From: a virus
UHGV virus genome: UHGV-0327824
Strand: one strand, 5' to 3'
DNA length: 13,131 nucleotides
Shown here: piece by piece, positions 402-13,131 of the stretch
Position numbering within the stretch: position 1 is the stretch's first letter
Layout of the letters: each line of letters begins with the position of its first letter
The notes under the pieces: generated by a model
The model's input: only the letters and a program-made list of their open reading frames with translations
Databases searched by the model: none
What the model was told of the DNA's origin: nothing
Program-made: the position numbers and the translations under genes

Positions 402-3224
402 ATGACGACAGAGTACATCAGGGACTGGCAACAACCGCGCCACGCAGTAGGACGTGAAGGAACGGAGATCCCCGCACCTGAATCCGCACTTTCCTCCTGG
501 CTGGATGCCTACCGGGCAGAGAACGAGCGCCGCCAGGAAATGGCTGATGCGGCGTTCTCCGCCACGCCGCTGGGCAACCTGATTAATAAAAGCCTGGACG
601 CACAGGAAAAACAGGACAAAACAATCACACTGGCAGGAGACGCCAGAAAACAGGCACGCGGCGCGGTAGATGAGGCCATGGCCTCACTGCGCCTGCTGCC
701 GTCCTATCTGCGCGATCCGCTTATTCGCCACCTCTCCTTCCTGCGCAAAAAACAGGAAGCCGATCGTCAGAAAGGAAAAAACGCCAGGCAGGCAGAACGC
801 TATGCGCGTGGGACCCTGCGCAAAATATTCGAACGTCTGGAGCGCACCGATCACCGCTGGCTGACATCGGGTTATCGCTCCCTTGCCGGACGTGAACGCC
901 TGGACGATTTGCTTTACCTGCCGCAACTCAACAAACACCAGATACAGACGCTGGCCACCATGACGGCGGCGATGTTCAGCAGCACCTTCGAAAAACTCTG
1001 CGATGGTTTTGGCGCGACTGATGGCGAGCTGACCATGGATGTAACGCTGAAGGTGTATCAGATGCTGGCCCGCATGGCATTACATCTGCACACCATGCCG
1101 CCACATTATGACGCACTGACAACAGACAAAGACCGGAGGAACGAACCAGACACGGAGCTGCTGCCGGGCGCAATTCTTCGCCTGACCTGTGCGGAATGGT
1201 GGAAGCGCAAACTGTGGCTTTTACGTTGCGAGTGGCGGGAAGAACAACTCCGCGCCGCCTGTCTGGTTTCCAGAAAAACATCGCCCTATCTGAGCCAGGA
1301 CGCGTTAAGCGAGTTTCGCGCACAGCGCGAGAAAACACGCGATTTCCTGAAAAGTTTCATGCTGGAAAACGAAGACGGGTTCACGATTGATCTCGAGACA
1401 GTGTATTACGCGGGAGTAAGTAACCCGGTTCACCGTAAGGCAGAAATGATGGCCACCATGAAGGGGCTGGAACTTCTGGCCGAAGCCCGTGGCGACAAAG
1501 CGGTGTTTCTGACTGTCACCTGCCCGTCAAAATACCACGCCACAACAGAGAACGGTCATCCGAATCCCAAATGGAACGGGGCCACCATGCGCGACTCCAG
1601 CGATTATCTGGTTAACACGTTTTTTGCGGCGGTCCGCAAAAAACTGAACCGCGACGGCCTGCGCTGGTATGGCATCCGCACGGTGGAGCCTCACCATGAC
1701 GGCACCGTGCACTGGCATATGATGGTCTTTGCTCATCCGGAAGAAATCGACAGCATCGTGGCCATCACCCGCGATATTGCCATTCAGGAAGACCGCCACG
1801 AGCTGGGCAATGATATTACTCCGCGCTTTAAGGTGGAGTATGTCGACGGCTCAAAAGGCACACCAACCAGCTATATCGCGACCTACATCGGAAAAAACCT
1901 GGACAGCCGCGCCGTCGATGGCATCGACCCGAAAACGGGCAAGCCACGCGTTGACCACGAAACCGGAAAATCAATGGCCGAGAGCGTGGAGCGCGCCATC
2001 GGCTGGGCGCGCCTTCACCGGGTCCGTCAGTTCCAGTTCTTTGGCATCCCCTCCCGTCAGGTGTGGCGTGAACTGCGCCGCCTTGCCAGCCAGATGGCAC
2101 GCAATCCGGAAGGCCCGCAACGGCTGAAAGATGATGCAATGGATGCGGTACTCGCTGCCGCCGATGCCGGGTGTTTTGCCTCCTACATTGAAAAACAGGG
2201 TGGCGTGCTTGTTCCACGCAAGGACTACCTGATTCGCACCGCCTACGACCTCGCAGATGAGCTGAACGATTACGGCGAACAGAGCGTACAGATTTACGGG
2301 ATCTGGTCACCACTCATCGGGGAATCCTCCCGTGTGTGCACGCATCCGGATAACTGGAAGTTGGTAAGACGTAAACCAGAACCAGAAGACAACGCCCACG
2401 AAAATGGTTTTGACCTTCAGGGCGGCCCTGCCGCCCCTTGGACTCGTGGCAATAACTGTCCCCGTGTACAGGAAACGGACAACAACGGGACAGAACAGCC
2501 GGAAGAACGGCCAGCACCGTGGCCGCAGCTTCCTGACGGCGTTGACGTGAACGAATGGATGCGCTCACTGAAACGGCACGAACGCCGGGCGCTGATGCGT
2601 TCGCTGCGTGACAAACAGGCAAAAAACAGCAGTGATGGAATGCAGAGCTGGACACAGAGCCGCAAACAGCAGCGGCCTTTGCCTGATAACCACGAATTAC
2701 TCGCTAAAGAATGGCGGGAATCTGCCGAATCTCTCGGCCTGCATATCGGTGAACAGCAGATGCAGCACCTGTTACGGGGCGGCAGCCTGTACGTTGACGG
2801 CAGCATCATTGCACCGCAGGGATTTGAAATTGTACGCAAACCGGATACCCGCCCGGACAGCCGAATCACGCAGCTCTGGCAGCGCCTGAGCCGTAATCAC
2901 GGCGTAAGCAGCACGGAGATCCGCCATAACCCGGTCGCCAGCTATCTGGAACAGCTGGGGGCATCAGACCCCGAAGCCGCCGCACGTCTGGCATCCACAC
3001 TTCAGCAGGACCAGAACACCATGACCCCCCCCGTTACCGTGCTTTCTGACATGCTGCGCGCCATCCGCGACGCAGAGCACGCACAGAGAATCAGTGAAAC
3101 CACTGAACGTGCCCGCCGCAAAGCAGACCTGCTGCGGGGTGGCCTGACCAGTGGAAACAAAAAACAGACAGAAACGGGATTCACAAATCCCGTAAATGAG
3201 CAAAAAACGCGCCGCGATATATGA
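402..3224 (+). CDS. A: P2 gpA-family rolling-circle replication initiation endonuclease (940 aa)
   Basis: Translation contains a HUH-type motif (VHWHMMVF) followed by paired tyrosines (YIATYIGKN), as in P2/186 gpA. Context supports it: Ogr, D, FI, FII, E in the same window. About 180 aa longer than P2 gpA as I recall it (about 761 aa). Confidence 0.88.
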   Translation: MTTEYIRDWQQPRHAVGREGTEIPAPESALSSWLDAYRAENERRQEMADAAFSATPLGNLINKSLDAQEKQDKTITLAGDARKQARGAVDEAMASLRLLPSYLRDPLIRHLSFLRKKQEADRQKGKNARQAERYARGTLRKIFERLERTDHRWLTSGYRSLAGRERLDDLLYLPQLNKHQIQTLATMTAAMFSSTFEKLCDGFGATDGELTMDVTLKVYQMLARMALHLHTMPPHYDALTTDKDRRNEPDTELLPGAILRLTCAEWWKRKLWLLRCEWREEQLRAACLVSRKTSPYLSQDALSEFRAQREKTRDFLKSFMLENEDGFTIDLETVYYAGVSNPVHRKAEMMATMKGLELLAEARGDKAVFLTVTCPSKYHATTENGHPNPKWNGATMRDSSDYLVNTFFAAVRKKLNRDGLRWYGIRTVEPHHDGTVHWHMMVFAHPEEIDSIVAITRDIAIQEDRHELGNDITPRFKVEYVDGSKGTPTSYIATYIGKNLDSRAVDGIDPKTGKPRVDHETGKSMAESVERAIGWARLHRVRQFQFFGIPSRQVWRELRRLASQMARNPEGPQRLKDDAMDAVLAAADAGCFASYIEKQGGVLVPRKDYLIRTAYDLADELNDYGEQSVQIYGIWSPLIGESSRVCTHPDNWKLVRRKPEPEDNAHENGFDLQGGPAAPWTRGNNCPRVQETDNNGTEQPEERPAPWPQLPDGVDVNEWMRSLKRHERRALMRSLRDKQAKNSSDGMQSWTQSRKQQRPLPDNHELLAKEWRESAESLGLHIGEQQMQHLLRGGSLYVDGSIIAPQGFEIVRKPDTRPDSRITQLWQRLSRNHGVSSTEIRHNPVASYLEQLGASDPEAAARLASTLQQDQNTMTPPVTVLSDMLRAIRDAEHAQRISETTERARRKADLLRGGLTSGNKKQTETGFTNPVNEQKTRRDI
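3172..3196. promoter_or_regulatory. Palindromic site copy 1 (AAACGGGATTCACAAATCCCGTAAA), inside the 3' end of gene A
   Basis: Arms ACGGGAT / ATCCCGT are exact reverse complements with a 6 nt spacer; a near-identical copy lies 73 bp downstream. Confidence 0.45.
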
Positions 3225-3300: not shown

Positions 3301-4260
3301 ATGAAAATTTGTATCGACGACGGCTCCACCAACATCAAGCTGGCATGGACTGAGAATGGCGAACGCCGCAACGCCATCAGCCCGAACAGCTTCAAGTCGG
3401 AATGGTCTGCGCCGTTCGGTGGCATGCAGCCCGCGAACTACATGCTTGATGGCGTGCGCTATGGTTTTGATCCGGTTAGCGATCGCTTTGTCCAGACGAC
3501 CGACACGCAATACCAGTACAGCGATGTGAATGTAATCGCCATTCATCACGCGCTGGTCAAATCAGGCATCACGCCACAGGAGGTGGATGTGGTTGTCACC
3601 CTGCCACTGAGCGAGTATTTCGACACAAACGCACAGCCGGACATGGCCAACATCAACCGCAAAAAAGCGAACGTTATGCGCCCGGTGGAGTACCAGAACG
3701 GCGAAGCATTCACTATCCGTAACGTGCGGGTTATGCCTGAATCCATTCCGGCTGGCTTTAAAGCACTGGCTGACATGAGTCCGTTTGAATCCCTGCTGAT
3801 TGTGGATTTAGGCGGAACCACGCTGGATGTGGCAAAGGTTCAGGGGCAACTGGCAGGTATCAGCCAGGTGTTTTGCGATCCACACGTAGGCGTCTCCCTG
3901 ATGGCCGGTGCCGTGCTGTCGGTGATGGCCGCTAACGGTATGCGTACCAGTCACCACATCGCCAATACCATTATCGAACATCGCCATGATGAAGCCTGGT
4001 TGCGCCAACACATCCACAATGACGCGCATTACGCCAGCCTGATGGCGGTTATTCGTGAAAAGGAAGAAACACTGAAACAACGCGTGATCCGCGCGCTGGC
4101 GGGTTTTTCGGGTTACGGGCGGGTGATGGTTGTCGGTGGCGGGGCGGAGATTGTGGCACCCGCTATCCGCGAAGCCTGCGGAGTTAATGTGACTTTCATC
4201 GCGGACGAGGTGCCACAGTTTGCTCTGGTTAATGGGCTGTACGCAATGGACAAGGAGTAA
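3301..4260 (+). CDS. parM: Actin-like plasmid segregation ATPase, ParM/StbA family (319 aa)
   Basis: N-terminus MKICIDDGSTNIKLAW matches the ParM/StbA phosphate-1 motif (R1 ParM begins MLVFIDDGSTNIKLQW from memory). Further shared blocks: ISPNSFK, YSDVNV..HHAL, RKKAN, VMPESIPAG, SLLI(V/I)DLGGTTLD, GVSL, V(M/V)V(I/G)GGGAE, LVNG(M/L)Y. RBS AAGGAAAA before the ATG. Confidence 0.85.
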   Translation: MKICIDDGSTNIKLAWTENGERRNAISPNSFKSEWSAPFGGMQPANYMLDGVRYGFDPVSDRFVQTTDTQYQYSDVNVIAIHHALVKSGITPQEVDVVVTLPLSEYFDTNAQPDMANINRKKANVMRPVEYQNGEAFTIRNVRVMPESIPAGFKALADMSPFESLLIVDLGGTTLDVAKVQGQLAGISQVFCDPHVGVSLMAGAVLSVMAANGMRTSHHIANTIIEHRHDEAWLRQHIHNDAHYASLMAVIREKEETLKQRVIRALAGFSGYGRVMVVGGGAEIVAPAIREACGVNVTFIADEVPQFALVNGLYAMDKE

Positions 4261-4264
4261 ACCA

Positions 4265-4579
4265 ATGACGACACCAACCAGACGGATAAGTTTCTATCTG
4301 AAGCCAGTCGCCGTCAATAGTGAACGGGAGGCGTGTAATTACCTCGACAGCCTGCCAGCCTCTGAACGCAGCCGCGCGCAACGCGCGGCCTTTCTGGCCG
4401 GGCTGGCACTCATAAAACGCGATCCTGCATTTGCCTATTGGTTGGCCGAATGGCCGGAAGAAGGAGCTGCGCCAGCCAAGAATAATATTCAGAGTAAATA
4501 TGCCAGCACACCTGCCACCGGAAGCAATCACAGCACTAGCGAGATAAGAAAGAACATTCAGTCATTTTTCCCAGAGTGA
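4265..4579 (+). CDS. parR: ParR/StbB-like centromere-binding adaptor (104 aa)
   Basis: Directly downstream of the ParM-like gene (4 nt gap, RBS GGAG). Resembles R1 ParR as recalled: ISFYLKP vs IAFKLNP, LDSLPASERSRAQRAAFLAGLAL vs LDSIPQGERSRLNRAALTAGLAL. Start taken at ATG 4265, not the longer in-frame ORF from 4220. Confidence 0.7.
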   Translation: MTTPTRRISFYLKPVAVNSEREACNYLDSLPASERSRAQRAAFLAGLALIKRDPAFAYWLAEWPEEGAAPAKNNIQSKYASTPATGSNHSTSEIRKNIQSFFPE

Positions 4580-4598: not shown

Positions 4599-5060
4599 AT
4601 GGCAACTATCCCCAAAAAATGGTTACAACGCAAAATTGCAGACCTTGAATCGTGTCGTGAAGACATCCCGTTTGGCCTTGATGAAAACGATCACAATATG
4701 TTAATCGCACTGAAAATCGCACTCACATCGCTGGAAGCAGAGGCAGTTATGTTCTGTATATCAGGACAAAATGTAGATTCAGAAGAACATGTATCAACCA
4801 GCAAAGCGGTTGTTGATGCCTGGGTTGAAGAATGGAATCAGGTTGACGGAAGTCCTGGCGAACCACTGTACAAAACTATGCCACTCTACTATCACGCTGC
4901 CTTGCCAGCGCCGGTAGTGCCGGAAGAAGCAACTCCGGAAAACGTAGAAATGCTCTCTGGCTATGTTTCCACGTACAAATTAACCGATAGCGAGCGCGAT
5001 ATTGCTGCCGAAATATGGAACGCCTGCCGCGCCGCTATGCTTCATGGGAAAGGAGAGTGA
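4599..5060 (+). CDS. Hypothetical acidic protein (153 aa), third gene of the parMR operon
   Basis: Strong RBS AGGAGAGGAG 5 nt before ATG 4599, 19 nt after the parR stop. Acidic composition, no motif I recognise. Noticeably more AT-rich than the flanking phage genes. Confidence 0.6.
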   Translation: MATIPKKWLQRKIADLESCREDIPFGLDENDHNMLIALKIALTSLEAEAVMFCISGQNVDSEEHVSTSKAVVDAWVEEWNQVDGSPGEPLYKTMPLYYHAALPAPVVPEEATPENVEMLSGYVSTYKLTDSERDIAAEIWNACRAAMLHGKGE

Positions 5061-5061
5061 T

Positions 5062-5325
5062 ATGGCAACTTTAACAAAAAAAGAACGGGCATGGTTGAAC
5101 GAATTACAGGACGTTCTTGATCGCTGCCCATCACCGAAAAAAATTGGTTTTTACACCATTGGCGATAAAAGCATTTACCTGTATGACCTGCGCCGCATGG
5201 ATGAAATCATGGAGGCTCTTGATAATCGTTCGTCAATGGATTGGTGTGTTGCTGTCCATGATATGAATGCAGGGTTTGATGAAAAGATTTTGTTCCCCTC
5301 ATCAGTTGAAAGCACAGCAGGATAA
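5062..5325 (+). CDS. Hypothetical protein (87 aa), translationally coupled to the preceding gene
   Basis: ATG 5062 lies 1 nt after the upstream stop (TGA 5058..5060), with GGAGAG RBS inside the upstream gene's 3' end. Intrinsic terminator follows at 5362..5385. Start is at the internal ATG, not the 5002 ORF-track start. Confidence 0.6.
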   Translation: MATLTKKERAWLNELQDVLDRCPSPKKIGFYTIGDKSIYLYDLRRMDEIMEALDNRSSMDWCVAVHDMNAGFDEKILFPSSVESTAG

Positions 5326-5361
5326 GGACCCAGCAAATATACACAACCTATAAAACACTAA

Positions 5362-5385
5362 AGCGCCTCAGGGGCGCTTTTTGTT
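5362..5385 (+). terminator. Rho-independent terminator closing the parM-parR-orf-orf operon
   Basis: Stem AGCGCC / GGCGCT with a 5 nt loop, then TTTTTGTTT. Confidence 0.7.
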
Positions 5386-5412
5386 TGCACAAAAGTGCAC
5401 AAATTTGCACAA
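5386..5412. repeat. Three direct repeats of TGCACAA at exact 10 bp periodicity
   Basis: TGCACAAAAG / TGCACAAATT / TGCACAATTT directly after the terminator; the middle copy forms the palindrome GTGCAC. Confidence 0.5.
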
Positions 5413-5784
5413 TTTTTTTGAACGACTTTTTACCCTTCCGGCCCGCATGGCGGCTGGATCCGTCAAGGATCCGTGCGTGCACAAAAAAACGCGTTTTTTC
5501 TGCGCGCAGGTGACGGGGGAACAGCCCGCGTTTCAGGGGGTAAATAGCATTCCCTGAACGATGTCGCAGAGACACAACAGAATGGCCATATTTCTCACGC
5601 TGAGCATGAAAAAGGCGTGAGGGCTTTTGATTTGATGGGGTGAAAGGTAAGGCCGTCAAAATCGCACTGAGGCAGCGAGAACATGCAGTCAACGCGGTGG
5701 AATTGCGTAAGAGTCTGACCGTCGATGGTGGCGATAAACTGGAAGGCGTCGTGAAATTATCTGATTGATACAGGAGCTGGAGAG

Positions 5785-5811
5785 CCGGGGCATAAATTTT
5801 TTATGCCCCGG
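5785..5811. promoter_or_regulatory. 27 bp perfect palindrome (CCGGGGCATAAA-TTT-TTTATGCCCCGG), about 100 bp upstream of the 174 aa orphan gene
   Basis: 12 bp arms are exact reverse complements around a 3 nt centre. No T-run follows on either strand, so it reads as an operator-like site rather than a terminator. A weak sigma70-like promoter (TTGCCG-17-CAAAAT) lies between it and the gene. Confidence 0.4.
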
Positions 5812-5911
5812 CGAAGCAGCAGACAAGCGAAGCGCGTCAGCGATACGGCACCTTGCCGACCATACTTCATAAGTGCAAAATACGAGCAAAGAAATCAATG
5901 GAGGCTGTCTT

Positions 5912-6436
5912 ATGGTCATTAATTACAAGCAGTTAAGAGAAAAACGGGAGCAGGTAAAGGAGAGCTTTCGCCGCAATGAAGATCTGACCCCGCTTGTACG
6001 CCTTGCCCAGGGCATTGTTGATGCTTATGAAATCTCGCTGGAGCTGCCATCACAGACCTGGACAGATAGCGACGGTAATCGCCAGCATTACGTTTCATGC
6101 GGACTGGAAGCAGCCGAAGGATTTCGCAGAATGCCTTTATCCCAGATCCCTGCCGCTACCCCCAAAGCACGGGGCAGCAATGATGAGCGAAAACTGACTT
6201 TTAGTATTGAAACGGTGGTTGACGACACACCTGGCGAAGTCGCGTTCGTGCACACGCCTGTTTCGATCGCAATGTATAACGATGAAATACAGGTTCGCGT
6301 TAATAATAATATCGTGCCACTTAAAGAAGGTAATTCACCCTACACCACCGTTTGTGAAGCCATTCAATATTACGTTCTCTCTGAAATTGATAATCTCAAG
6401 CCTGACGGCACCCAGAAAATGGTTCAACTCTGGTAA
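5912..6436 (+). CDS. Hypothetical protein (174 aa), orphan cargo gene
   Basis: ATG 5912 preceded by GGAGG at 7 nt spacing; the ORF-track start at 5873 is a GTG without an RBS. Ends at TAA 6434..6436, followed directly by a hairpin terminator. No recognisable motif; AT-rich relative to the phage genes. Confidence 0.6.
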   Translation: MVINYKQLREKREQVKESFRRNEDLTPLVRLAQGIVDAYEISLELPSQTWTDSDGNRQHYVSCGLEAAEGFRRMPLSQIPAATPKARGSNDERKLTFSIETVVDDTPGEVAFVHTPVSIAMYNDEIQVRVNNNIVPLKEGNSPYTTVCEAIQYYVLSEIDNLKPDGTQKMVQLW

Positions 6437-6441
6437 AAAGG

Positions 6442-6467
6442 ACAGCCCCATCACGGGGCTGTTTTTT
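6442..6467. terminator. Bidirectional intrinsic terminator between the convergent 174 aa gene and the tape measure remnant
   Basis: Stem ACAGCCCC / GGGGCTGT with a 5 nt loop; T6 run on the plus strand, and a weaker TCCTTTTT tail when read on the minus strand. Confidence 0.65.
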
Positions 6468-7939
6468 CATCAAGAAGAGCATAAGAGTTAAAACGGATCA
6501 CCTCTTCGCCAAGCCAGTCATTGATGTGCTTCATAGCCTCCATGACGGGCATCAGCTCGTTAATTGCGTAAACCGTCACCCGCCGCATCAACGAGTGCCA
6601 TAAACGATGTGAAAGCCTCTTCCCCGGCGATGTCCTTAAAGAAGGATACCCGGTCAACTTCCCCGTATTTGCGGGTAGCTTTATAAAGGTCAGCCAGCAG
6701 ATCTTCCATCGGGCGCATTTTGCCCCCGGCATCCGAGACGGACACGCCCAGCTCTTTCAGAGCTTCTGCCGCCGCCTTTGGCGGTGATGCCAGACGAGCC
6801 AGGCTGGCACGCATTGCCGTCCCGGCATCACTCCCTCTGATGCCCATATTCGCCAGCACGCCCGCCATCGCTGCGGCCTGCTCCAGCGATATCCCCAGCT
6901 TACCCGCCACCGGACCGGCATATTTCATGGTTTCGCCCAGTGCGCGAAGGTCAGTGTTGGTACGGGTAAACGCTGCGGTGAGTGTGTCTCCGACCCGGTC
7001 CATCTGGTCAGCAGAAAGGCCGAACTGCGTCAGGATATTTGAGCCAATATCTGCCGTCTCGCCGAGATCCATACCGCCAGCCGTTGCCATGCTCAGTACG
7101 CCGGGAAGCGCAGCCTGAATGGCCTGCGGAGTGAAGCCTGCCATTGCAAGAAATGCCTGCCCACTGGCGGCATCGCCTGCGGTGAACTGCGTTTCAGAGC
7201 CAAGTTTTAACGCCTGCTCACGCAGCGCCTTAAACTGCGGGCTGTTTTTGTCGATTCGCGTCAGTGCCTGAACGCGGGACATCTCTTTCCCGAACCCGAT
7301 CGCAGGCTGCAAAAAACGCCCGGCAGCATAGCCGCCAGCCGCTGCCGCACCAATTGCCAGCGCACCACCTGTTTTCAGTTTTCCTGCTGTTTCCTGCGCG
7401 CGCGAATACCGCTCACGCGCACGCGTTACACGCGCAAGCGCCTGCCGTTCGCGTTCAAGCTGATTGTTGTACTGTTCGGTGCGTCTGATGGCCTGCTGGA
7501 TGGTGTTATCGCTGCCTGTCAGGGAAATGCCGTGGCGTTTCAGCTCTCCGCCAAGCTCCCGCATTTTCTGAATTTCCCGTGTGCGCGATTCATTCAGGCG
7601 TTCAAGCCGGGTGCTTAACTGCTGCATCAGCTTTTGTTGTTTTTCGCTGAGCACTGTACCCGTGCGTTGTAACTGATTAAGGGCGTTAAGCTGGCGTCGT
7701 GCTTTCACGATGCCAGCATCCGCTTTACTGACAGCGTCACGGGCGCGCTCAAATGAACGCGCCTGACGCTCGAGATTTTTGATCGCCCCCTGCGTTCGCT
7801 GGATGGAGTCACCAAACTGCCCCATCAGGCGGCGGGCGTTTTCGGCAGGCCGGGTCAGCCTGTCAACGGCGCTGAAAGCGACCCGGATATCAAGAGTCTT
7901 CATTGTCTGCATTCCCGCTGCGAAGTGCCGCCCGCTCAC
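6451..7939 (-). pseudogene. T: Truncated/frameshifted tail tape measure gene (P2 gpT-like): 459 aa N-terminal ORF plus an out-of-frame 93 aa tail
   Basis: Starts overlapping the end of E', as in P2. N-terminal region is coiled-coil-like with long Ala/Gly-rich stretches, typical of tape measure proteins. ORF 6560..7939 stops at 459 aa against about 815 aa recalled for P2 gpT; a different frame continues to 6451 into the terminator. No U gene follows. Start codon ambiguous (GTG at 7939 or ATG at 7912/7903). Confidence 0.65.
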
Positions 7940-12158: not shown

Positions 12159-12190
12159 CCCGCAGCGTAAGAACTGCGGGTTTTCTTTTT
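12159..12190. terminator. Bidirectional intrinsic terminator between the hok-like locus (+) and the secreted-protein gene (-)
   Basis: Stem CCCGCAG / CTGCGGG with an 8 nt loop; TTTTCTTTTT on the plus strand and a T-rich tail (TTTGTTGTT) on the minus strand. Confidence 0.65.
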
Positions 12191-12258
12191 GGAACTATCA
12201 CTAGCTAGTGTACCGTTAACGGCACATAATGCTCGCACAACAAACCTGTTAAAAGAGA

Positions 12259-12540
12259 TTACTCAGCATTCTCCTGCTTCCATTGCCGGATCATTTCATC
12301 GGTAACATCACCCTCATAACATACCACGTCATACCCTCCATTACGGCTATATGCACTGCGTCCACCACATCTACTACCATTCCTTGCATGATTATAAGGA
12401 CACGCACAATTGCCTGGATAAGATTCAATGGATTCTTTAATTATTTCTTTTTTGATCTGAGCATCAGACTTTCCTGTTGCTGCATATCCGCTAAAAGATA
12501 CTAAACAAAGGCAGATTGCCATTAATAAACCACATCGCAT
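12259..12540 (-). CDS. Small secreted cysteine-containing protein of unknown function (93 aa precursor), AT-rich gene
   Basis: Start taken at the internal Met giving a signal peptide (MRCGLLMAICLCLVSFSGYAA | TGKSD). Mature part about 72 aa with four Cys (NCACPYN..RCGG..VCYEG). Markedly AT-rich against its surroundings. The ORF-track N-terminal extension to 12654 has no RBS. Confidence 0.55.
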   Translation of the reverse strand: MRCGLLMAICLCLVSFSGYAATGKSDAQIKKEIIKESIESYPGNCACPYNHARNGSRCGGRSAYSRNGGYDVVCYEGDVTDEMIRQWKQENAE

Positions 12541-12769
12541 ACCGATACACTCTATTACTAACCAATCATAGCCCACATCATAAAATCGAGATGAGGAGTA
12601 CAATACCTTTAACAAGAAGGTGTCATAACGATAATATGTCGTGCAATTCATCAAAAAAAAGATCTATATCAAAGAGATAGAACTCTTATCAGTGCTTCAG
12701 ACATCGGCATTCGAGGCAGCAGAAAAACAGTAAATCTGACGAATTTGCCTTTTCCCAAGATGTTGTCAG

Positions 12770-12926
12770 ATTAAAAAGATAGATTAGCGCAGGTACCTGT
12801 TGGTGGATTGCAGGAGGAAAAATGAAGTCGAGTGGAAAAATCCCAGAAAAATTTTTGTTTAACAGAGGTCCTGGCTCACTATGCGAAATACGGAGGAGCT
12901 GCAGAAGAATTCTGCTTCATCCTTAG
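12770..12926 (+). pseudogene. Deletion remnant of a second hok-type locus (leader fused to the hok C-terminal coding part)
   Basis: The leader is about 75-80% identical to the first locus's leader by eye (GATAGATTA.., ..TTTCTGTTTAACCGAGGCCCTG vs ..TTTTTGTTTAACAGAGGTCCTG), then jumps to sequence matching the hok 3' coding part (TCACTATGCGAAATACGGAGGAGCTG vs TCGCTGTGTGAAATACGGATGAGCTT). The TM-coding part is missing and the reading frame differs. Confidence 0.5.
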
Positions 12927-13012
12927 AGTTTAAACAGCACGTGCACTACCATTGTTTCTGCATATCGCCACACCATCGCCACTCAACCGCCATTGCACAA
13001 AATACAAATACG

Positions 13013-13034
13013 AAAAAACCACCCGAAGGTGGTT
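13013..13034 (-). terminator. Intrinsic terminator downstream of the tRNA gene (minus-strand transcript)
   Basis: Minus-strand reading: stem ACCACC / GGTGGT with loop TTCG, then TTTTTT; about 45 nt after the tRNA CCA end. Confidence 0.7.
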
Positions 13035-13078
13035 TCACGACACTGCTTATTGCTTTGATTTTATTCTTATCTTTCCCA

Positions 13079-13131
13079 TGGTACCCGGAGCGGGACTTGA
13101 ACCCGCACAGCGCGAACGCCGAGGGATTTTA
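13079..13131 (-). tRNA. leuZ: 3' portion of tRNA-Leu(UAA), leuZ-like; gene continues beyond the window end
   Basis: Reverse complement reads ..TAAAATCCCTCGGCGTTCGCGCTGTGCGGGTTCAAGTCCCGCTCCGGGTACCA: anticodon loop with UAA, a long class II variable arm, T-arm GGTTCAAGTCC, acceptor 3' strand and encoded CCA. Only about 53 nt are in the window. Confidence 0.85.

Follow-up and report, generated by a model that had tools for sequence, protein, structure and literature searches.

A conserved phrog_5091 gene in a probable moron-type cassette beside the portal gene of P88-like Escherichia coli prophages

The interval between the replication gene gpA and the portal gene gpQ of P2-like phages is a documented cos-proximal anti-phage hotspot (PMC9122126; PMC9519451; PMC13586616). 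In P2 it harbours old and tin, and many of the defence systems located in it have been validated; partition systems and toxins such as cytolethal distending toxin occur there too (PMC9122126). The subject of this analysis is an open reading frame (ORF) of 174 codons at positions 5912-6436 (plus strand) of the UHGV virus genome UHGV-0327824, a stretch of 13,131 nucleotides (nt) that is referred to below, at its full length, as the window. The ORF is located between gpA and gpQ of a P2-like prophage, and its product is identical to the RefSeq protein WP_000236495, a "hypothetical" hotspot resident counted at least 167 times in Table S5 of Rousset et al. 2022 (PMC9122126). Neither this accession nor the PHROG identifier of the family was found mentioned in the main texts of the literature. 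Like other hotspot cargo, the gene is optional, compositionally distinct and variable in its occurrence. It differs from such cargo in that (i) its protein matches no known defence model, and (ii) it does not belong to the swapping cargo next to the ParMR genes but occupies a fixed micro-site of its own, on the portal side of a conserved non-coding block. This micro-site is either empty or holds an allele of the phrog_5091 family only.

The second type of element relevant here is the moron, reportedly defined by Hendrix and colleagues as an extra gene with its own promoter and terminator, located between genes that are adjacent in related phages. The 174-codon gene shares with morons the presence or absence between the same flanks, an own terminator, a lower GC content and the single-gene organization, and its homologues are found at classic moron sites of lambdoid prophages (between the late antiterminator gene Q and the holin gene, and between Rz and the terminase genes). 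The differences relate to the promoter, which is putative (8 of 12 consensus matches, at a conserved position), and to the insertion itself, since the cassette has replaced the final five portal codons instead of landing cleanly between two genes. Another comparable system is Tin of P2, a single protein encoded in the same hotspot that excludes T-even phages. The likeness consists of the same hotspot, a single non-membrane protein and a plausible stoichiometric mode of binding. Tin is, however, longer (253 against 174 residues), and its position and orientation in the hotspot are also different. Kinship between the two proteins was rejected (hhalign probability 0.4%).

A conserved gene in a self-contained cassette

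The ORF starts with ATG at 5912 and ends with a TAA stop codon at 6434-6436. RefSeq annotates the identical coding sequence, and the homologues all begin at the same MVINY start, so that the reading frame proposed in an earlier note on this DNA is borne out. The strong ribosome-binding site (RBS) claimed there was likewise found, as a Shine-Dalgarno sequence GGAGG (5900-5904, plus strand) placed 7 nt before the ATG and kept in the alleles compared. Between E. coli alleles, 20-22 synonymous differences were counted versus 6-7 non-synonymous ones, which corresponds to a ratio of non-synonymous to synonymous substitution rates (dN/dS) of 0.06-0.08, and 63 alignment columns are invariant across alleles of 46-96% identity. 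Such a low ratio indicates a real gene under purifying selection; the earlier note had named lack of conservation as an outcome that would overturn its view, and the opposite was observed. The GC content, 0.46-0.51 over 5800-6600 compared with 0.55-0.60 in the phage backbone (replication and tail genes), agrees with the compositional distinctness that had been noticed before.

The ORF could nevertheless be devoid of function, either as a chance reading frame or as a decaying remnant in non-coding DNA by the cos site, and a nearby annotated ORF of 42 residues (5640-5768) does look spurious. This explanation is contradicted by the dN/dS values, by the start codon and length, kept across 49 homologues from 100% down to about 22% identity, by a confident AlphaFold model with a predicted local distance difference test (pLDDT) score of 90.3, and by the strong RBS together with a terminator. 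It is therefore hardly conceivable, and the selection and conservation data effectively refute it. On the same evidence, the ORF is a real, well-conserved gene under strong purifying selection.

Comparison with related prophages revealed that the gene is part of a cassette of about 635 bp (5841-6475), composed of a leader, the ORF, a terminator and new final portal codons. The left breakpoint falls at 5840/5841, right after a relic of the portal stop codon of the empty site (GCGTCAG, with the breakpoint behind its last letter). In blastn alignments with two prophages having an empty site (L006 and L007) similarity is lost at 5840, and a 56%-identity allele from another E. coli prophage (L023) diverges at the same left point. 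The right breakpoint is situated at about 6470-6476. L006 and L007 are 94-96% identical to the window over 5361/5378-5840 and resume the match at 6476, the 635 bp of the cassette standing in place of only 21 bp; in both of these ORF-less loci the left flank directly abuts the portal stop codon. As a result of the exchange, the final five portal codons are supplied by the cassette (EKTAP and stop, versus TQPTA and stop in the empty-site allele).

The cassette (at least 80% of 5700-6450) was detected in 397 of the 5426 complete E. coli genomes searched, about 7%. About 745 further genomes match 5702-5844 only, and among the matches listed this segment lies under or beside a portal annotation. 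About one third of such prophage sites in the complete genomes are thus occupied by the cassette. This presence/absence comparison supports the view of the earlier note that an uncharacterized accessory gene resides in a P2-like prophage.

Upstream of the ORF, a cassette-specific region of 71 nt (5841-5911, plus strand) constitutes the leader with the putative promoter. Among 41 ORF-bearing loci compared in IMG/VR, the leader is 94-100% identical in 38 and 86% identical in one further locus; it was not matched in two divergent alleles of ~66% identity. The promoter-like signals described earlier held up in part: a consensus scan detected no promoter with at least 9 of 12 matches upstream of the ORF, but a candidate sigma-70 element with 8 of 12 matches, TTGCCG-17-CAAAAT, occurs at 5853-5881 (plus strand). 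The Salmonella allele keeps the positions and the spacing of both hexamers (TTGTCT-17-CAAAAT) despite its diverged surroundings. A late-promoter box of the Ogr type (TGT-N12-ACA) was not found within 200 bp upstream, although this negative result is weak because the motif occurs at chance frequency across the window.

Downstream of the ORF, a bidirectional intrinsic terminator extends over 6437-6467, with a stem (6442-6449/6455-6462) prolonged by an A-tract and a T-tract and with T-runs on both sides. Its predicted folding free energy (dG) is -19.9 kcal/mol on the plus strand (z -7.0) and -16.6 kcal/mol on the minus strand, and none of 200 shuffled sequences folded equally well. The hairpin terminator of the earlier note was thereby confirmed; its partner on the minus strand, on the other hand, is the portal gene gpQ and not the tape-measure remnant, as had been assumed. 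The terminator serves the 174-codon gene on the plus strand and the portal gene on the minus strand, and the portal stop codon is situated inside the hairpin loop.

The insertion/deletion polymorphism between the same flanks, in otherwise collinear prophages, points to a cassette of the moron type. The segment 5841-6475 is therefore very probably a portable moron-type unit, made up of the leader, the strong RBS, one 174-codon gene and the bidirectional terminator, which is in line with the self-contained unit that had been proposed.

The independence of the cassette from the neighbouring cargo was assessed in the 41 IMG/VR loci. The convergent portal gene follows the ORF in all 41, and the conserved flanking block precedes it in every one. 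In the 39 close alleles the portal gene lies 18 nt downstream, the block measures 397-463 bp (44 bp in one truncated contig) and the leader of 71 nt is retained, whereas in the two divergent alleles of ~66% identity about 158 bp of the block are left and the leader is unrecognizable. In contrast, any part of the region encoding two small acidic proteins (4599-5325) was detected in only 4-5 of the 41 loci. At least four different sets of cargo were found upstream of an identical (100%) or near-identical (99.4% at the DNA level) protein, and the cargo pair of the window itself is encountered again in FORC_069. No conserved partner gene was identified, the neighbours varying across every context examined, and nothing resembling a toxin-antitoxin or other multi-gene arrangement emerged. 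The cassette is, by these comparisons, evolutionarily independent of the upstream acidic ORFs, and the idea that it forms with them one cargo of about 1.8 kb had to be abandoned, since the parts are evolutionarily uncoupled.

The protein and the family phrog_5091

The product was described in the earlier note as an orphan, which proved incorrect. It is a full-length member of phrog_5091, a family of PHROGs v4 without functional annotation: the hidden Markov model matches with E = 1.4e-67 and 227.5 bits, residues 1-168 being aligned to positions 1-164 of the 164-position profile. All 49 aligned homologues match phrog_5091 and no other family. Pfam, NCBIfam and PADLOC provided no usable match for the query or for the 49 homologues, in agreement with the earlier statement that no motif could be placed. 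For the 5027 defence models of PADLOC in particular there was no convincing match, the query yielding none and the homologues two isolated marginal ones (E = 0.005-0.009).

A word-indexed search returned close enterobacterial relatives only, whereas an exhaustive profile search collected remote homologues in 89 clusters (representatives at E <= 0.001). Nearly all of these proteins have 155-185 residues and are aligned end to end. The list also contains fragments and a few N-terminally extended forms, as well as two Ig-repeat proteins that were rejected as false positives; apart from these two and the N-terminal extensions, no domain fusion was found among the longer profile matches. The homologues come from E. 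coli, Salmonella, Klebsiella, Serratia, Xenorhabdus and Trabulsiella and are all annotated as "hypothetical". Of 50,697 phage genomes searched, no more than four carry a family member, all of them P88-like temperate phages. As found here, phrog_5091 is, according to these searches, restricted to Enterobacterales and almost only to temperate phages and prophages.

Sequence-based prediction describes the 174-residue protein as soluble, with a pI of 5.0 and no hydrophobic segment. An AlphaFold2 model built from an alignment of 49 sequences reached the pLDDT given above and a predicted template modelling score (pTM) of 0.81. The predicted fold is of the alpha+beta type, in which two N-terminal helices and one C-terminal helix are packed on an antiparallel sheet. 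Among its weak structural neighbours, protein-binding modules predominate (for example FP domains, capping protein, immunity proteins and chaperones). Two conserved motifs stand out in the family: SLxLP..W.D..G...YV and a TVxDD(S/T)P loop. No catalytic, nucleotide-binding or DNA-binding motif, signal peptide or transmembrane segment was recognizable, and neither sequence nor fold revealed homology to a structural or housekeeping family, the finding by which the earlier note would have been disproved. The strongly acidic surface and DNA-mimic fold of proteins such as Ocr or ArdA were not found either.

In a search of the PDB with a shallow alignment (A1), designed helical-repeat proteins were matched at residues 125-168 with E values down to 2e-10. 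These matches vanished with a deeper alignment (A2) and were rejected as artefacts of composition. They call for caution towards composition-driven hits to designed proteins.

The flanking block and the defective prophage

Outside the cassette, a conserved non-coding block of roughly 460 bp (5378-5840) accompanies the portal gene in P88-like phages, whether these carry the ORF or lack it. TGCACAA repeats, three or four in number (5386-5416 and 5477-5484), occur in the block, together with a perfect hairpin with 13-bp arms at 5784-5812 (dG -24.2). This palindrome had been taken as part of the unit, but it lies in a flank that ORF-less phages carry as well. The 42-residue ORF (5640-5768, plus strand) is listed as "hypothetical protein" in several phage and RefSeq records. 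Its variable sites are spread 18/18/17 over the three codon positions (40 distinct sequences); lacking any codon periodicity, the segment was rejected as coding and is probably not a gene.

The block is probably also the location of cos. The record of phage P88_4B11 (LR595891) has the layout of the P2 virion map, with the portal gene first and gpA with its cargo last, and it is linearised at the position corresponding to 5430/5431 of the window; the placement is based solely on this record. In P2, cos is found 186 bp from the Q stop codon. A search of the window for the 19-nt cos sequence of P2 and for its cos region gave no match. A cos site within the block would put the cassette on the portal side of cos, apart from the hotspot cargo on the gpA side.

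The window derives from a defective E. coli prophage of the P88-like kind (Xuanwuvirus, P2 family). The replication endonuclease gene gpA (402-3224, plus strand) is followed on the same strand by ParM (3301-4260) and by a ParR/Plasmid_stab_B protein gene ending at 4579. This partition module (StbA and Plasmid_stab_B, 3301-4579, plus strand), directly 3' of gpA, is of a kind that occurs in about a quarter of P2-like phages, for which possible maintenance as a plasmid has been proposed in the literature. Next come the two small acidic ORFs at 4599-5060 and 5062-5325 (plus strand; pI 4.6 and 4.8), assigned to phrog_5117/phrog_660 and phrog_1714, families without known function. A bidirectional terminator (5360-5380) closes the pair, which constitutes a separate cargo unit. 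A stretch of about 590 bp without a credible gene separates it from the 174-codon ORF (plus strand).

Beyond the cassette gene, the final 41 codons of the portal gene gpQ remain as a 3' remnant on the minus strand (6451-6574), where similarity to intact phages stops at about 6574. It is followed on the same strand by the N-terminal 459 codons of the tail tape-measure gene (6571-7939; PF10145, E = 1.7e-58), then by the tail genes E, FII and FI (minus strand) and finally by gpD and ogr (plus strand). The match to intact phages changes from portal to tape measure at about 6571-6574, and therefore head genes, lysis genes and most tail genes have been lost. As read from this switch, the portal remnant is joined to the tape-measure N-terminus by a single deletion of these genes. 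The junction was encountered in none of the 5426 complete E. coli genomes.

Similarity to P88-like phages stops at about 12190. The final AT-rich 0.9 kb (~12190-13131) matches a chromosomal region in essentially all E. coli genomes, the counterpart of which is annotated there as "hypothetical protein | tRNA-Leu", and is probably the host flank with the attachment region. ARAGORN detected no complete tRNA inside the window, and a scan with Rfam detected no RNA family in it.

Genomic contexts of the homologues and possible functions

Members of the family are always single genes at accessory sites. The synteny of homologues in P2-like prophages was compared, as the earlier note had recommended: in E. 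coli (the 56% allele) and Salmonella (63%) the homologue abuts the portal gene, and in a Trabulsiella prophage (46%) it lies 3' of gpA, with HicAB and Phd-Fic modules next in order. Lambdoid prophages of Klebsiella, Serratia and Xenorhabdus, as well as a metagenomic contig, carry the homologue between the late antiterminator gene Q and the holin gene, which is where Stx phages carry stx, and there it usually has its own terminator downstream. One E. coli lambdoid prophage carries the homologue between the lysis gene Rz and the terminase genes. A further homologue stands alone in a chromosomal islet; the genes called over about 7 kb to its left and to its right include no phage gene.

In lambdoid prophages, GC-rich terminator hairpins that closely resemble each other (A/GAGGC...GCCTT TTTT) lie on both sides of the homologue or downstream of it, at 5746-5769 and 6542-6565 in L014, 6558-6581 in L025, 6498-6521 in L027 and 5619-5640 in L024. 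These hairpins look like a duplicated or displaced terminator of the tR' type, as would be expected from an insertion of the gene between pR' and tR'.

Proximity to late genes is the basis for one explanation of the protein, namely an accessory factor for late functions of the phage itself (lysis timing, packaging or cos recognition, portal or terminase) that would be dispensable but advantageous. The gene is always near late or packaging genes, abutting the portal gene and the probable cos in P2-like phages and, in lambdoid ones, either directly preceding the holin gene or standing between Rz and terminase, and the cassette rewrites the final five portal residues. However, about two thirds of the close prophages lack the gene although their portal and terminase are near-identical, and the family accompanies unrelated portal and terminase types (P2-type, Terminase_3 with Phage_portal_3, and GpA-type with Phage_portal_2). 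The Trabulsiella homologue is found by gpA and toxin-antitoxin modules and not by the portal gene, the islet homologue has no such neighbours at all among the genes called, and in the window the gene is intact although the head and lysis genes of the prophage are gone. A late accessory role is for these reasons improbable.

The favoured, still tentative reading is that the protein is expressed in the lysogen and acts as a non-enzymatic binder in inter-phage competition, in exclusion or in defence. It is preferred because of the hotspot location, the anatomy of the cassette, the restriction to temperate phages, the single-gene organization and the lack of catalytic motifs. According to this proposal, the gene would be transcribed in the lysogen from its own weak sigma-70 promoter, the protein would act stoichiometrically by binding a phage or host protein, and the binding would exclude or handicap competing phages, a form of superinfection exclusion or of defence comparable to that by P2 Tin. 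The position in the gpA-gpQ defence hotspot speaks for it, as does the Trabulsiella homologue with its HicAB and Phd-Fic neighbours.

Several observations weigh against a competitive role of this kind. The family is without a convincing PADLOC match. The candidate promoter is weak, with its 8 of 12 matches, and no obvious promoter is seen in the leader of the 56%-identity allele, which is only 38 nt long. The description as a binder and not an enzyme is derived from the missing recognizable motifs, and the conserved TVxDD(S/T)P loop could be catalytic or metal-binding. WP_000236495 is not in the table of systems tested (Table S2 of PMC9122126), and the protein was not found in the supplementary tables of DefensePredictor. 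The hotspot includes non-defence cargo such as partition systems and toxins, and the literature prior for an unknown gene of the P2 hotspot being antiviral is only 15-35% (PMC13586616). Finally, the lambdoid homologues come after the late antiterminator gene and point in the same direction as the lysis genes, a position with which expression late in the lytic cycle is at least as compatible as expression in the lysogen.

The same lambdoid position enters into a counter-defence explanation, in which a small soluble binder would neutralize the immunity of the host or of a competitor and so aid the lytic growth of its own phage. The protein is small, mildly acidic and predicted to be cytoplasmic, without an enzymatic motif; the lambdoid homologues head the late operon, between Q and holin, and would be strongly expressed in lytic growth; and defence hotspots are known to combine defence genes with anti-defence genes (PMC12629846). 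Yet late expression would come too late for most such roles, and the family is absent from all virulent phages of the 50,697-genome collection. In P2-like phages, moreover, the gene is convergent with the late P-Q operon and has no Ogr-type box within the 200 bp upstream, and the solitary islet homologue is remote from any called phage gene. Counter-defence is accordingly considered unlikely.

Benefit to the host offers a further explanation, by which the gene would be a lysogenic-conversion factor for the host or its environment, concerned with stress tolerance, metabolism, colonization or virulence. It is suggested by the moron architecture, by the Q-to-holin site, at which stx is found in Stx phages, by the virulence cargo that the hotspot also carries (cytolethal distending toxin, for instance), by the wide distribution of the gene in human and animal E. 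coli isolates and by its retention in a degraded prophage. Against it stand the lack of a signal peptide, a transmembrane segment and a DNA-binding motif, the lack of similarity to any toxin, effector, regulator or enzyme family, and the lack of association with a particular pathotype among the matches listed. Lysogenic conversion of this sort has little probability.

If the preferred reading of a competitive binder is carried further, phrog_5091 may be the founding family of a new single-protein, non-enzymatic weapon of phage against phage, used in defence or counter-defence. It would have a fold without a solved counterpart and be encoded in a promoter-gene-terminator cassette that moves between the unrelated P2-like and lambdoid lineages of temperate phages in Enterobacterales, with a dedicated site at the portal stop, across cos from the hotspot cargo. 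This extended proposal is doubtful. The finding itself is solid but ordinary, because elements of this kind are well known, the protein has been catalogued before and the analysis yields no mechanism. Should the protein prove inert against phages, it would be an ordinary uncharacterized moron.

A large share of E. coli genomes contain P2-like prophages, and new immune systems have been discovered time and again in the cos-proximal hotspot of these elements. The locus described here adds a second site of insertion, placed with great precision at the portal stop codon and seemingly reserved for phrog_5091, a family that recurs at the Q-to-holin moron site of lambdoid prophages. Occurring in about 7% of genomes and having a confident predicted structure without a solved relative, the 174-codon gene is a cheap and well-defined candidate for phage-challenge experiments.

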